Below are positions 3,488 to 50,191 of a stretch of DNA of 64,000 nt, piece by piece. Source of the DNA: an uncultured virus (IMG/VR IMGVR_UViG_3300011008_000014). Its lineage: Duplodnaviria > Heunggongvirae > Uroviricota > Caudoviricetes. The position numbers were made by a program, and so were the translations under genes. Numbering within the stretch: the first letter of the stretch is position 1; each line of letters opens with the position of its first letter. The notes under the pieces are model-generated. The model had not been told where the DNA came from. It searched no databases and saw only the letters and a list, made by a program, of their open reading frames with translations. The DNA lies in IMG/VR virus record IMGVR_UViG_3300011008_000014; one strand, 5' to 3'.

Positions 3488-3574
3488 GGAGGAGTGGCTG
3501 AGTGACTGAAAGCACCACACCGCTAACGTGGCATACGGAATCCCGTATCGCAGGTTTGAATCCTGCCTCCTCCG
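3488..3574 (+). tRNA. tRNA-Ser(GCT)
   Basis: Acceptor GGAGGAG/CTCCTCC, G73, anticodon loop CCGCTAA, long variable arm, T arm GCAGG-TTTGAAT-CCTGC. Confidence 0.9.
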
Positions 3575-3778
3575 CAAGTCTTGTATCAGCACACGCACCA
3601 CAAGCAAGTACATTTGGAAGCGTTAAGGGGCGCGACCTCTATAGAAAGCGAGCCTAAAGAATGTGGAAAGTATCGGCGTAATCCCCAAAAAGGCCGAGAG
3701 GGTAAGCATTTGGGTGGAATCCCCATAAAATCCTTGGGGCTGTTGCCTGTGACGACATGGCGGTGTGCGAGGTAAAAC

Positions 3779-3850
3779 GGGATGTTCGTCTATCGGTTAG
3801 GACTACAGGTTTTCAACCTGTCAAGAGGAGTTCGACTCTCCTACATCCTA
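3779..3850 (+). tRNA. tRNA-Glu(TTC)
   Basis: Acceptor GGGATGT/ACATCCT, anticodon arm ACAGG-TTTTCAA-CCTGT, T arm AGGAG-TTCGACT-CTCCT. Confidence 0.9.
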
Positions 3851-3958
3851 CAACTTATCCGTATCTGAACTGTAGGAAATTAGGCTCTGAGAAATGCTCG
3901 TCTGATAAGTGACGTGCTGGATGTCGCCCCTGTCAATTCGGGCAGGGGCATTTCAAAC

Positions 3959-4030
3959 TGGCTGCTGGTGTAATTGGTAACACTACAGATTTTGGTTCTG
4001 TCATTATGGGTTCGAGCCCCGTGCGGCTAA
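3959..4030 (+). tRNA. tRNA-Gln(TTG)
   Basis: Acceptor TGGCTGC/GCGGCTA, D arm GTGT-AATTGGTA-ACAC, anticodon arm ACAGA-TTTTGGT-TCTGT, T loop TTCGAGC. Confidence 0.88.
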
Positions 4031-4045
4031 CAAAAGGGAAAGAAG

Positions 4046-15058: not shown

Positions 15059-15181
15059 CGAAGGATGGTGTAATGGTAGCACACCCGTATATGGAACGGG
15101 AGGATAGCTGTGAATACGAGCGCAAGAATAACAGCTTCGCACATCGTTTGTGTGTTGTAGGTTCGACCCCTACTCCTTCGA
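15059..15181 (+). tRNA. tRNA-like RNA with a 56-nt variable region; identity uncertain (loop ATATGGA)
   Basis: Acceptor CGAAGGA/TCCTTCG, D arm GTGT-AATGGTA-GCAC, anticodon stem CCCGT/ACGGG, T arm GTAGG-TTCGACC-CCTAC. Confidence 0.75.
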
Positions 15182-15183
15182 CT

Positions 15184-15741
15184 ATGGAAAAGAAAGACAA
15201 ACGGTTTAAGGCTATCGTCGCTGTCGGCAATGACGGAGCGATGGCAGGCTACTTTGAAAAGATAATGGATGCCGTCAGAAAATACGGCTTCACGGCTGGC
15301 AAGTTGGGAGAGGCGATAAAGACTGGCAAGGTATATTATGGATTCAAGTGGATGCTCGATGATGACTATAAGAAACTGTGGCTGGAAGGGAAAACGCATG
15401 AGTTGGCCTTTGAACGCACGAAGTACAACAGGCCGATGACAAAAGGCACTACCCCATTTAAGCCAATGGCCGAATGGTCGGACGAAAGCAAGCGGAAATA
15501 CCGCGAGTCGCAAAGCAGGAAAGCGAAACGCCTGTGGCATGACCCGAATTGCAAGTTCGGGAAATGCGTTGTCAAGAAACCCATTGTCTGCGTGAATACT
15601 GGAGTCGAATACCCTTCGATAAAGCAGGCCGCGAGGGAATTGGGAATACAGAGCCATCAGATAACAGGTGCGATAAGCAGGCACGGCACAGTACACGGAT
15701 TGAAATTTGAACCACTAAACAATAAACAACATGGAGCGTAA
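15184..15741 (+). CDS. NUMOD-type DNA-binding protein (homing-endonuclease-associated domains; no nuclease motif seen)
   Basis: WSDESKRKYRES (NUMOD3-like) and KPIVCVNTGVEYPSIKQAARELGI (NUMOD1-like). Confidence 0.7.
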   Translation: MEKKDKRFKAIVAVGNDGAMAGYFEKIMDAVRKYGFTAGKLGEAIKTGKVYYGFKWMLDDDYKKLWLEGKTHELAFERTKYNRPMTKGTTPFKPMAEWSDESKRKYRESQSRKAKRLWHDPNCKFGKCVVKKPIVCVNTGVEYPSIKQAARELGIQSHQITGAISRHGTVHGLKFEPLNNKQHGA

Positions 15742-40364: not shown

Positions 40365-40494
40365 TTGCATTACGGAAGCAAAAAGGCTGCAAAAACAGCG
40401 CGAATCTTTCACAAAAAGCAAATGTGAAACATAAAGACGGCCAAAAGAAAGATTACCGTCTGATTATGCCTAACTTTGCCGATGAAGTGAAAAT

Positions 40495-40568
40495 CGCGGG
40501 TTGTTAGCAGTTGGTAGCTTGCCACTTTGACTTGGTGGAGGTCGCTGGTTCGAGCCCAGCACCCGCAA
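40495..40568 (+). tRNA. Initiator-type (fMet-body) tRNA with GAC (Val) anticodon
   Basis: C1xA72 mismatch, G2-C71, C3-G70, A11-U24, A73, variable loop AGGTC, T arm GCTGG-TTCGAGC-CCAGC; anticodon arm CCACT-TTGACTT-GGTGG; promoter TAACTTTG at 40471-40478. Confidence 0.85.
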
Positions 40569-40603
40569 CAATAGAATTAGTAACAATCAAATCGAAAAGA
40601 AAG

Positions 40604-40996
40604 ATGAATTTAGAAGGATTGGAAGTATTGACGCTGCAAATCAAGCGCGACAGCTTCAAGGAAATCTTAAAGGGCAGACAGAAAACGGAGCACCGCTTCG
40701 TCTACCCGCGTAACGCCAAACAGTATTTGGTGGAAAAGGACAACGGTGACGGCACATGCGATGTCGAGGTTGTGGGCTATGATGCCCTACAGCTTATCAA
40801 TGGCCGTCAGAAGGATGCACCCCGTCTGCTGGTGAAGGTCGAAGGTATCAATGTCATTCAGATGGATAACGATGAGACTGGAGAGCCGCTGACCTTCGTA
40901 GACAACGGCGAGACCTACTATGTCACGCAGATGGAATACCAACTCGGCGAAATCTTGCAGAAAGAAAACTGCGAAAGGTTCGACAACGAGGATTAG
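40604..40996 (+). CDS. ASCH/PUA-like domain protein
   Basis: LTLQIKR..F.EILKG.QKTEHR...YDALQL.NG...DAPRLLV. Confidence 0.75.
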   Translation: MNLEGLEVLTLQIKRDSFKEILKGRQKTEHRFVYPRNAKQYLVEKDNGDGTCDVEVVGYDALQLINGRQKDAPRLLVKVEGINVIQMDNDETGEPLTFVDNGETYYVTQMEYQLGEILQKENCERFDNED

Positions 40997-41051
40997 CAAG
41001 CCCATTCAGACAAGTTCACAATATGTTCAACTTCAAAAAACGATTAGCTGA

Positions 41052-41306
41052 GTCAGAAACAGAATCAATCGAATCACTGGTGTCACGTCTAACGTGAACG
41101 GTGCAGGGAACAGACGACTGGCAAACGGTGGCCGCTATGAGGCTGGCCGTGCAGGTTTCGGAACCCGTGAACAGCGTCGCCAAGACCTTCGTGTGACGTT
41201 TGCACGACAGGCTCGTCAGAACGTAGCCGCCATGCGTGCCCGTGGTGTGCGTGGCGCAGCACTCCGAAGTGCAGCCCTTCGTGCTGCCGCAGGCTCTGAG
41301 GGTTAA
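41052..41306 (+). CDS. Small Arg-rich protein, proposed GTC start (84 aa)
   Basis: Frame opens right after TGA at 41049 with GTC; no early in-frame ATG; context TAGCTGA-GTC-AG. Confidence 0.65.
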   Translation, partial: VRNRINRITGVTSNVNGAGNRRLANGGRYEAGRAGFGTREQRRQDLRVTFARQARQNVAAMRARGVRGAALRSAALRAAAGSEG

Positions 41307-41478
41307 TCCCAAAGACCGACGAACAGGCACAGGCCATCACCGTCAACATCTGATGGTGGTGGCCGTTCTGTTTAACGGAAGAGTTAAATAAAGTGAGTAA
41401 CAAGAAAATAACCCGAAAAATATTTGGTAAATCAATTTATTTGCTTTATCTTTGCACAATAAAATAGTAACAAGCGAT

Positions 41479-41676
41479 ATGGCATATACGAAACAGGAGA
41501 TAGATGACTTTCGTAGCAAGTTCTATGATGCTTTGCTGGCTGTGAAAAGCAATGGAAAGCCCTTTCTTACAGAGAAGGAGGCGCATCATATTGTAGACGG
41601 ATATACTAATGAGTCGCTGGCACAGGATATGAGGTTCAACACCCCCGAGTCGCTGGCACAAATTTTCACGATGTAG
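41479..41676 (+). CDS. Small hypothetical protein with its own promoter
   Basis: TTTGG...TATCTTTG upstream; internal ESLAQ duplication. Confidence 0.7.
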   Translation: MAYTKQEIDDFRSKFYDALLAVKSNGKPFLTEKEAHHIVDGYTNESLAQDMRFNTPESLAQIFTM

Positions 41677-41680
41677 CCGA

Positions 41681-42340
41681 GTCAGTTTACAGAAAGCAAA
41701 TCAACAGGTAGAACGCGCACTGACGCGAAAGGGTATAACCCATTCATCAACGCCGATGGAACACGCATCCCGTCGTGCGTTCAAACGTGCTCTCCGTGCT
41801 TCAAAGAGTGCCATGCGCTCAAAAGGCCGCAATCCTAACTATTGGATGGTCGATGTTCATTCTAAACGTGAATATCAAGGAATGCGGATGTATCTAACGC
41901 CCGACAAGAAATCGGGTGTCGCAATAACCAAGGATGGCAATATCACATCCTTATTCAGCAATTCTACAGAAGGAGGCCGTATGGCCAAGCTGCTGACTTT
42001 TGCCGTTGCAATGGGAGGTAGGAAACTGGACTGCTTCGGCGGCGGTCTACAGAACATGTACGCCCGATTCGGCGCAAAGGCCGTGGCACAGACTCCCTTT
42101 GATGAACAATATGCACCGAAGGGATGGGATGGACGGCATCTGCCAGTGGTGGCAATGGTGCTGCCTAAGTCTGTAGGGGCGATGATGCGGGCATACGACA
42201 GGAACAGGCGCGTGGACTTGAACAAAGTACGCGAATATCCCGATTATGATTCAATGATTGCAGCCCGTGACAGGTCTATGAACAGGGGAAGTAACACCGT
42301 GGCCGCTGCCTTGCGAACAGCATTGGGCGGCTCAAACTAA
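41681..42340 (+). CDS. GNAT-like-fold basic protein, proposed GTC start (alternative ATG at 41756)
   Basis: ITSLFS...G....LL..AV..GG.KLDCF...L..MY..FG motif; GTC is in frame 4 nt after the upstream stop, context TAGCCGA-GTC-AG. Confidence 0.65.
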   Translation, partial: VSLQKANQQVERALTRKGITHSSTPMEHASRRAFKRALRASKSAMRSKGRNPNYWMVDVHSKREYQGMRMYLTPDKKSGVAITKDGNITSLFSNSTEGGRMAKLLTFAVAMGGRKLDCFGGGLQNMYARFGAKAVAQTPFDEQYAPKGWDGRHLPVVAMVLPKSVGAMMRAYDRNRRVDLNKVREYPDYDSMIAARDRSMNRGSNTVAAALRTALGGSN

Positions 42341-49246: not shown

Positions 49247-50191
49247 ATGAAAGGTAACGGCAGAATGATTTCAAGACAGGATGCGGCAGAGATACTACGC
49301 ACAGACCCTCAGACGGTATCAAACTGGATTGAGAAGGGCGTATTGCGCGGAAAGATGATTGGCCGCATTCAGATGGTGGATGGTAATACCATCGAGGCAC
49401 TGTTTGACACGCTGAAAGACTTGGATGAGTCGAAGAAGATAATCGGTCGGTTGCAGCAGGAGAATTACGAAAAGGCATGTGAGTTAAGAAAGACCCGTGA
49501 CGAATGGCTGTTAGACCTTGCAATGGTCAACGGACTGGAAAAGCCGACAAAACTGCTGCGGATGATAACGTCTATGATAGACAGCGTTAGCGATGACATC
49601 ATGGCAGACCGTGAGCGAAACATACTGAAATACTACTTGGACGGTTCGGAATTTGAGGCCATCGGTGACGAGTACGGGCTGACCCGCGAAAGGGTAAGGC
49701 AGATAATCGAGAAGGCCATGCGCAAGCTGGGAAGCCTTGAGCCCTATGGTGATGTGCTGAACAGGTGCAGTGAACTTGAAAACGAGAACTTGATGCTGAA
49801 AGCCACGTTAAAGCGGCAGGAGGCAGAACTTGATGCGTTGCGCGGCAAGAAGGATGAAGCAGAGGATAGCACGTTGTCAGAACAGGACAGGCAAGTGCTG
49901 GAACTGCTGAACACAAGGCTCGTTGACATGAATCTGACCGTTAGGGCGTTGAACTGCCTAAAGGCGGCTGACTTGGAGACTTTCGCCGACTTAGTGAAGT
50001 GCCAAAAGACAGACCTTCTGAAATTTCGGAATTTCGGCAGGAAGTCATTGGGTGAACTTGATGACCTGCTGGAGAATGAAAGTGAAAGGACGGGCGTTAG
50101 GTTTTCGTTCGGAATGGACGTGTCGCCCTTCTATGAGCGTTATACGAAGAGTCTAATCAATAAAGGTGTGATAGATGCTGAAACTGAATGA
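49247..50191 (+). CDS. Transcription factor: N-terminal HTH, sigma70 region 4 and RNA polymerase alpha-CTD-like domain
   Basis: DAAEIL....[38 protein letters not shown].......LV......[14 protein letters not shown]. Confidence 0.85.

Follow-up and report, generated by a model that had tools for sequence, protein, structure and literature searches.

A phage-encoded tRNA(GAC) of initiator type and the GTC-opened genes that accompany it in Bacteroidota phages

The DNA analysed here is a stretch of 64,000 nucleotides from an uncultured Caudoviricetes virus, a gut phage of Bacteroidota (IMG/VR record IMGVR_UViG_3300011008_000014), referred to as a whole as the window. It carries, on the + strand, a tRNA gene with the body of a bacterial initiator and the anticodon GAC, and downstream of it two open reading frames (ORFs), SP1 and ORF2, that open with GTC. 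We judge it probable that a tRNA-fMet of host type has given rise to a dedicated alternative initiator tRNA, encoded by the phage, which starts genes at GTC. Comparison of related loci shows the following: (i) the tRNA is conserved, structured and of initiator type, (ii) the two ORFs are coding from GTC, and (iii) start codon and anticodon covary. Beyond this, we infer valylation, formylation, initiation in the P site and a regulatory purpose. An earlier interpretation of the locus, made without database searches (the sequence-only reading), had proposed such a system, and as a whole it is supported by the comparative data.

Covariation of anticodon and first codon in two gene families

Relatives of SP1 are encoded on 340 IMG/VR stretches, and the best 80 of these, chosen by the SP1 protein alone and independently of the tRNA, were classified. 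In 58 of the 80 loci a tRNA(GAC) lies about 0.5 kb upstream and the first codon is GTC, and in 12 a tRNA(AAC) accompanies a GTT first codon. Four loci have an ATG start, a longer N-terminus and no such tRNA within about 1.46 kb; six have less than 500 nt of upstream DNA, and their class is not assignable. Discordant loci were absent (0/80). Among the 58 GAC/GTC loci the tRNA was called by ARAGORN in 51 and recognized by pattern, as divergent copies, in seven. A covariance model built from the tRNA alignment described below (A4) had no match in the four ATG-type records (estimated completeness 58%, 63%, 90% and 100%) and exactly one match in G007, the closest relative of the window that we found, a complete viral record of 119,237 bp with terminal repeats. 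When all loci were pooled, with some contigs counted repeatedly, there were 158 GAC/GTC and 21 AAC/GTT pairs and none that was discordant; the distinct tRNA+SP1 haplotypes number 71 (64 GAC/GTC and 7 AAC/GTT).

The first codon of ORF2 switches likewise. It is GTC in three GAC phages (the window, L362 and L363), and on all eight contigs carrying the AAC tRNA, matched by contig name, ORF2 opens TAG-CGA-GTT. The sequence-only reading had suggested looking for co-occurrence and for joint changes of anticodon and start codon, and both are found in these loci. As far as these comparisons go, in one lineage of ~100-kb phages a change of anticodon went together with a change of first codon in two unrelated genes. 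Two kinds of apparent exception were rejected: in seeming GAC/GTT pairs of SP1 the homologous codon is GTC, and GTC-opened frames in AAC-tRNA loci are off-frame artefacts within other genes. In the AAC-tRNA phages, ARAGORN also reports a 'tRNA-???' with a two-base anticodon (ca) 3′ of ORF2 (L365 4065–4135, L367 and L368 4214–4284, L372 1606–1676).

Further small basic ORFs of 50–80 codons, often with a G-L-S-N-G-like ending, lie behind the same type of site in GAC phages. In 109 distinct small ORFs of these phages the first codon is GTC 90 times and GTT 19 times, and never GTA or GTG, whereas the internal valines of the same ORFs are encoded by GTA (115), GTT (82), GTG (36) and GTC (26); Fisher's test gives p ~3e-32 with relatedness ignored. 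A change from GTC to GTG is synonymous and makes a canonical start, yet it is seen in 0/109. In AAC phages the first codon is GTT in 6/6.

The start sites share a context. The sequence-only reading had pointed to TAGCYGA-GTC-AG at both ORFs, and this stands: the window contains two exact copies of TAGCYGAGTCAG, at 41045 and 41674, where 100 shuffles give an expectation of 0.01. With up to two mismatches the motif is not enriched (5 seen versus 5.72 expected). Sites of the form G[CT]NGAGT[CT] number 16 on the + strand of the window, and only those at 41052 and 41681 open frames of at least 45 codons. A looser test required GAGTC, an ORF no shorter than 40 codons, a stop at most 20 codons upstream and no canonical start upstream; it is unspecific on its own, being passed by 2 of 32 GAGTC sites on the + strand but also by 8 of 27 on the − strand. 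Across 49 distinct GTC sites there is A at −1 in 48, G at −2 in 48, G at −5 in 47, C at −4 in 40 and a purine at +4 in all 49, giving the consensus G(−5) C(−4) N G(−2) A(−1) GTC R(+4). A(−1) and G(−2) are able to pair with U37 and U38 of the tRNA. In most contexts (L001–L298) the G-C-N-G-A 5′ of GTC is complementary to tRNA positions 37–41, G.U pairs counted, a pairing that would enter the 3′ strand of the anticodon stem; covariation of −4 with position 40 was seen in only 2 of 6 contexts with C40 tRNAs. Quadruplet pairing of the initiator tRNA with transcripts has been reported in E. coli (PMC10018350). Tallies of opening codons say less. Counting the codons that open ORFs within 12 codons of a stop was not discriminating; as the first sense codon after a stop, GTC ranks top on the tRNA strand, noisily, with 62 of 1074 distinct contexts versus 15 of 1502 on the opposite strand; and a tally anchored on AGGAGG gave, in small numbers, GTC 10 and ATG 5.

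In the window, GTC 41052 stands immediately 3′ of an in-frame TGA and GTC 41681 lies 4 nt past the TAG at 41674–41676. They are in frame with GTG 41094 and ATG 41756, respectively, and there is no canonical start between the upstream stop and either GTC. For SP1, 52 distinct 5′ regions were compared over codons 2–13, which precede the first canonical start at codon 15. Variation at codon positions 1, 2 and 3 was 1.96, 1.19 and 3.31, Gly10 changes at the third position only, and pairwise codon differences were synonymous in 4579 cases versus nonsynonymous in 3779. One SP1 relative of 51 codons (L018) contains no canonical start anywhere. The same TTAGCTGA-GTC site recurs in the cultured Bacteroides phage BS-TP2, in frame with the ATG annotated there, and the intervening codons of BS-TP2 differ synonymously from those of the window. 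For ORF2, residues 1–25 align with the N-termini of six ATG-start homologues, and homology of this segment extends to relatives starting with ATG, GTC or GTT. The ORF2 of L362 and L363, the two closest phages, opens TGA-GTC, and its first canonical start is codon 53, within the conserved domain; towards the N-terminus, conservation with L362 extends to around residue 5 of ORF2 in the window. Coding signature and homology thus reach 5′ of the canonical starts, up to the GTC codons that the sequence-only reading had flagged and not only from GTG 41094 and ATG 41756, and on this comparative evidence SP1 and ORF2 are both coding from GTC. The expectation that gene callers would truncate such genes also held: public calls use canonical starts (P0001 and gp53 of BS-TP2, both at an internal Met, and P0003), and the ESM Atlas protein of ORF2 begins only at residue 26, read as M.

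Pfam gave nothing for SP1, ORF2 or an SP2-type protein, and an ORF2 profile had 0 matches among PDB sequences. The predicted fold of ORF2 is weakly GNAT-like (TM 0.51–0.54). Its homologous domain also occurs within proteins of 1,300–1,870 residues and in Mu-F-type head proteins, which hints at virion-associated products. SP1-type ORFs (L003–L298) and the unrelated ORF2 family (A1) share a C-terminal ending like G-L/M-S/T-N/G-G; the ending is also present in ATG-start homologues and may be a targeting or processing signal.

The tRNA, its family and its origin

ARAGORN calls the gene tRNA-Val(gac) at 40495–40569, with the anticodon at 40529–40531. C40495 faces A40567 as a 1–72 mismatch, G2-C71 and C3-G70 are both there, A11-U24 is formed by A40506 and T40519, the variable loop is AGGTC and the discriminator is A40568 (A73). 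The sequence-only reading had listed these features, together with the placement of the gene and its GAC anticodon, and ARAGORN and the sequence confirm them. The anticodon loop is UUGACUU, with U37 and U38, and U31.G39 closes the stem. Formyltransferase needs the 1–72 mismatch and R11:Y24 (PMC9976931), and G2-C71, C3-G70 and R11:Y24 are among its determinants (PMC5389676, PMC9976931). Bacterial Val identity rests on A73, A35 and C36 (PMC9976931), all three of which are there in the window tRNA; the minor acceptor elements G3-C70 and U4-A69 are absent, the window tRNA having C3-G70 and G4-C69. A single-sequence minimum free energy fold gave no cloverleaf (z −1.5). Upstream stands a match to TAnnTTTG, which we take to be the Bacteroidota −7 promoter consensus (TAACTTTG in the window); among 75 distinct upstream contexts, 59 have it 8–16 nt 5′ of the tRNA.

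Alignment A4 comprises 46 distinct phage or prophage variants and two host initiators (48 sequences). Of its cloverleaf cells 94.7% pair, versus 76.9% after shuffling and 39–50% when the partners are slid by 1–3 columns, and changes on both sides were found at 13 of 21 cloverleaf pairs, with compensatory changes in all four stems. A standard pair at 1–72 is found in 0/48: position 72 is A, U or C facing C1, or C facing a single U1. G2-C71 and A11-U24 are present in 48/48, and C3-G70 in 47/48 with one U.G. The cloverleaf is maintained and the top pair is never standard, so selection keeps both the fold and the open 1–72. The determinants for valyl-tRNA synthetase (ValRS; A35, C36, A73) and for formyltransferase (the 1–72 mismatch, 2-71, 3-70, R11:Y24) are all conserved in the family. 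Elongator tRNAs usually have a purine at 37 and a paired 1–72; here 1–72 is open in 48/48 and U37 is found in all 46 phage variants (46/46). With canonical tRNA-fMet the family shares the 1–72 mismatch, G2-C71, C3-G70 and R11:Y24; in place of CAU and Met it has GAC, or AAC in the sister lineage. By these features the tRNA derives from an initiator and has had its anticodon arm rebuilt; it is neither a canonical tRNA-fMet, because it lacks CAU and the three G-C pairs of the anticodon stem, nor an elongator tRNA-Val, because of its open 1–72 and U37.

Two host genomes that also carry a phage-type tRNA supply the initiators for comparison (L356, Bacteroides; L357, Dysgonomonas). Both share with the phage tRNA the acceptor stem type (C1xA72, G2-C71, C3-G70), A11-U24 within the same D arm, the AGGTC loop and A73, and both differ from it in the anticodon arm, where they have CAU and three G-C pairs and the phage tRNA has GAC in the loop UUGACUU and lacks those pairs. 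The host tRNA-Val(UAC) of the two genomes has an unrelated body. The resemblance suggests that the phage tRNA derives from a host-type tRNA-fMet.

A 21-nt anticodon-arm pattern matched at more than 106 IMG/VR loci, a lower bound; a search of viral contigs with the exact 27-nt T arm gave 0 matches. In genome contigs, 22 of 57 pattern matches are the true tRNA and one more is doubtful (L305), the remainder being chance matches in non-tRNA sequence. Record titles assign 21 of the 22 to Bacteroidota (Bacteroides 11, Parabacteroides 3, Prevotella 2, and single records of Hallella, Dysgonomonas, Chryseobacterium, a Bacteroidales metagenome-assembled genome (MAG) and a Porphyromonadaceae MAG), and one to a Lachnospira-labelled MAG. 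Two of 50,697 phage records contain the tRNA, namely a 5-kb fecal fragment and BS-TP2, where nothing is annotated at its position; 22 further pattern matches in phage records belong to Vibrio, Roseobacter and Ruegeria phages, and those that are annotated are tRNA-Met. BS-TP2 was reported in 33.5% of 930 gut viromes (PMC12694917); in the available text of that paper the words 'tRNA' and 'start codon' do not occur. The family is common, as this frequency and the 340 IMG/VR stretches with SP1 relatives show.

Several related tRNAs are recorded here as side observations. Divergent GAC copies of initiator type (L225 969–1041, L232 410–482, L254 982–1054, L277 979–1053) keep the C1xA72 acceptor stem and the anticodon arm and have lost the D-loop GG and the T-loop TTCGA; the SP1 genes beside them are still GTC-started. 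Other viral initiator-body tRNAs with a 1–72 mismatch and a non-CAU anticodon are L138, L118, L131, L137 and L205. Of these, L138 has a UAC anticodon on an initiator body with the complete stem of three G-C pairs, and the anticodons ACU and AAC also occur. A UAU family of 18 loci (e.g. L144, L150, L156) has A1xA72 and U37, and a few ORFs there open with ATA after a sequence like that of Shine and Dalgarno (SD), with A at −1.

Proposed mechanism and rival explanations

On the reading that we favour, a promoter of its own, immediately 5′ of the gene, would drive transcription of the tRNA, host ValRS would charge it with valine through A35, C36 and A73, and host formyltransferase would formylate it, the 1–72 mismatch keeping EF-Tu away. 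It would then be set in the 30S P site on GUC, or on GUU by G.U wobble, at start codons in the context G-C-N-G-A / GUC / R, where pairing of U37 and U38 with A(−1) and G(−2) would be possible. Two genes of the window would be started in this way, SP1 (41052) and the GNAT-like ORF2 (41681), and their translation would depend on the phage tRNA. A wider proposal, on which our opinion is evenly divided, is that Bacteroidota phages, and possibly others, run a natural orthogonal initiation system, in which an initiator tRNA with a reassigned anticodon starts private genes at sense codons that the host cannot use, extended pairing of mRNA and anticodon loop (A-1:U37, G-2.U38) replaces the checkpoint of three G-C pairs and initiation factor 3 (IF3), and the products carry an N-terminal (formyl-)valine. 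GAC and AAC are the anticodons documented in the system; UAC, UAU and others are found on initiator bodies in viral contigs.

A number of observations weigh against this reading. The main objection is that the three consecutive G-C pairs 29-41, 30-40 and 31-39, the hallmark of initiators (PMC5389676), are missing in the phage tRNAs, which have A-U or G-C, C-G and U.G instead. The D arm of the window tRNA is irregular, with one additional base 5′ of the D stem and U.U as the first D-stem pair, a form that recurs in the Dysgonomonas macrotermitis genome (L347) and in L087 with other T-stem and 7-66 pairs. The Rfam RF00005 score is 26.5 bits (E 0.0014), below the gathering score of 29. At the start sites, an SD-like 4-mer lies between −18 and −5 in 14 of 49 and in neither of the two window sites. 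Anticodon and codon are not related one-to-one, GTT being the first codon of 19/109 small ORFs in GAC phages. G34 decodes C and U, and A34 decodes U; given those 19 ORFs, third-position wobble in the P site is therefore required. Three of the 109 are exceptions, two with an upstream in-frame canonical start and one truncated, and one SP1 relative known as protein only (P0002) has an ATG four codons 5′ of the valine. The covariation amounts to few evolutionary events, counted without a tree: one AAC/GTT lineage (the ~100-kb phages) and one ATG lineage. Lastly, genes for formyltransferase (Fmt), deformylase or initiation factors were not found among the 79 window ORFs scanned, so all of these must come from the host.

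It could be argued that the gene is an ordinary elongator tRNA-Val(GAC), which adds to the decoding of GUC or stands in for a host tRNA that an anticodon nuclease has cleaved, and that the GTC motif is an unrelated signal. Its ARAGORN type is tRNA-Val. Evasion of defences directed at tRNAs has been proposed for phage tRNAs whose anticodon loop is altered (PMC10264068), and the two host genomes matched by pattern only for tRNA-Val(UAC), so that GAC could add decoding capacity; not every host tRNA was read, and a tRNA-Val(GAC) may exist there. We nevertheless consider this explanation very unlikely. The 1–72 pair is mismatched in 48/48 while the other acceptor pairs are kept by compensatory change, the body is that of the host initiator and not of the host tRNA-Val, and U37 stands in place of the purine that is usual in elongators. 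Nor is there a special demand for GUC, since GTC makes up 23% of valine codons in the long ORFs of the window, and in the small ORFs it is the rarest internal valine codon. An elongator role would also leave unexplained why, in two gene families, the first codon covaries with the tRNA. The same covariation bears on whether GTC and GTT are merely weak near-cognate starts read by the host fMet initiator, the phage tRNA having another role, as might be supposed from the natural, IF3-repressed GTC start published for Streptomyces sigR (PMC5472188). GUC and AUG differ at two positions, the first codon follows the anticodon (GTC only with GAC, GTT with AAC, ATG where there is no tRNA), and none of the 109 small ORFs has drifted to GTG, a canonical start one synonymous base change away; we would be most surprised if near-cognate reading were the answer.

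A tRNA-shaped riboregulator, whose anticodon loop (possibly positions 37–41) pairs with GCNGAGUCR and opens or marks the site while translation starts by another route, would account for the complementarity of the mRNA motif to the entire 7-nt loop, for that of −5 to −1 to tRNA 37–41 in most contexts, and for the loss of canonical D and T loops in some variants. A pure antisense RNA would have no need of the conserved formyltransferase and ValRS determinants, several ORFs offer no alternative start codon in the conserved coding 5′ part, and the −4/position 40 covariation holds in only two of the six C40 contexts; we regard this explanation as improbable. The remaining alternative is that a copy of tRNA-fMet is decaying, that the ORFs start at GTG 41094 and ATG 41756, and that the motif is due to chance or is a transcriptional signal. 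The score under the Rfam gathering value, the single-sequence fold that is not a cloverleaf and the public gene calls at canonical starts would suit it. Against it stand the compensatory changes in all four stems across 46 phage variants, the exact motif found twice versus 0.01 expected, the coding signature and homology 5′ of the canonical starts, and relatives in which the first canonical start is at codon 53 or absent. The comparative data already contradict decay, to which we give hardly any credence.

To our knowledge, initiation at the AUG family of codons by a CAU initiator tRNA is treated as universal. Mutants of tRNA-fMet with a GAC anticodon are said to have been studied in the Schulman and RajBhandary laboratories. 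Gut phages reportedly carry suppressor tRNAs with stop-codon recoding (work attributed to Borges et al. and Peters et al., both 2022); in both cases a viral tRNA alters the reading of a subset of genes, which gene callers mis-annotate, and the difference is that suppressors act in elongation at stop codons whereas initiation at a sense codon is proposed here. In E. coli, an initiator engineered to carry the anticodon AAC begins translation at GUU and yields Val and formyl-Val N-termini (Hutvagner et al. 2021, 10.1101/2021.05.25.445580), and further non-CAU E. coli initiator tRNAs have been engineered (10.64898/2025.12.21.695813). The phage system would resemble these in joining an initiator body to a valine anticodon, in using a complementary non-AUG start and in giving Val or formyl-Val N-termini. 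The laboratory initiators and the natural phage variants have the anticodons GAC and AAC in common. In the phage loci start codon and anticodon are complementary and covary, and, as in an engineered orthogonal pair, the start would be expected to depend on the anticodon. A difference is that the laboratory constructs keep the three G-C pairs and the native A37 loop; the phage tRNAs occur in nature, with U37/U38, with U31.G39 and without a stem of three G-C pairs, and a conserved start-site context and a set of target genes of their own accompany them. Streptomyces sigR is likewise a natural GTC-start gene under translational control, but in the available text of PMC5472188 it is IF3-repressed and has no dedicated tRNA, and the phage has an adjacent, covarying one. 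Nuclease-evading phage tRNAs (PMC10264068) also have an unusual anticodon loop; they keep the identity and role of the host tRNA that they replace, unlike the initiator body with a valine anticodon described here. In the literature searched, with most subscription journals outside its scope, we found no natural initiator tRNA with a reassigned anticodon, non-CAU initiators being engineered only.

If the reading is correct, the genetic code would deviate in a new way, at the start instead of the stop, through a natural phage initiator that has a start codon to itself, and translation gated by a phage tRNA would add a layer to phage gene control. It would also mean a systematic blind spot of gene calling, with such genes missed or truncated in public records. 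The system would offer a ready orthogonal initiation part for Bacteroides synthetic biology and a direct test of which initiator features (three G-C pairs, A37) are needed. The cultured pair of BS-TP2 (accession PQ571275) and Bacteroides salyersiae BG8, in which the phage carries it unannotated, is open to experiment.

Layout of the locus and other features of the window

The window is phage DNA with nearly all genes on the + strand and an S24-type repressor at 498–1433 (−). It encodes SSB, NinG, a helicase, methyltransferases and dUTPase, followed by the small terminase subunit (43982), large terminase subunit (44725), portal (46092) and major capsid protein (58572). The tRNA/SP1/ORF2 block lies directly 5′ of the terminase genes, with PAPS-reductase-like and ParB-like genes after ORF2. 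The features of the block are collected in the table.

Table. Positions of the tRNA, the start-site motifs and the neighbouring genes in the window
Feature	Positions	Strand	Description and basis
Promoter-like TAACTTTG	40471..40478	+	Matches the presumed Bacteroidota −7 element TAnnTTTG; 16 nt 5′ of the tRNA
Initiator-derived tRNA(GAC)	40495..40568	+	ARAGORN, Rfam score, alignment A4, pair counts, comparison with host initiators
GAC anticodon	40529..40531	+	Reads GUC and, by wobble, also GUU; sequence, ARAGORN, first-codon statistics
ATG-start gene between tRNA and SP1	40604..40996	+	phrog_625; BS-TP2 homologue annotated as ASCH domain protein
Start-site motif 1, TAGCTGA-GTC-AG	41045..41056	+	Motif search, shuffles, site consensus
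SP1	41052..41306	+	84 codons, small arginine-rich protein; GTC right after TGA, GTG 41094 is codon 15
Terminator-like hairpin after SP1	41332..41364	+	14 pairs, then a T-rich tail
65-codon ATG ORF	41479..41676	+	Its TAG stop belongs to motif 2; no family match
Start-site motif 2, TAGCCGA-GTC-AG	41674..41685	+	Motif search, shuffles
ORF2	41681..42340	+	219 codons, GTC-opened; phrog_2563, weak GNAT-like fold; ATG 41756 is codon 26

Metatranscriptome contigs from two runs of one study cover the ATG gene and SP1 at a word depth of 21–76 and ORF2 at 2.5–5, with no cover over the tRNA. No base differences fall at the motif or the GTC among those listed (93 others were not listed). The contigs of relatives break off at the terminator-like hairpin (positions 41328 and 41335); they show neither strand nor transcript ends, and the fit with the hairpin is a weak hint.

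Elsewhere in the window, 15059–15181 (+), within the ORF 15073–15741, is matched by the Rfam tRNA model at 46.8 bits; the variable region holds a 52-nt insertion and the anticodon loop is AUAUGGA. ARAGORN makes no call there. The protein encoded at 49247–50191 (+) has both a sigma-70 region 4 domain (E 2.4e-11) and the C-terminal domain of RNA polymerase alpha (E 1.1e-18), a fusion that is unusual in a phage regulator. Three ordinary tRNAs, Ser(GCU), Glu(UUC) and Gln(UUG), each above the Rfam threshold, lie at 3488–4031 (+).

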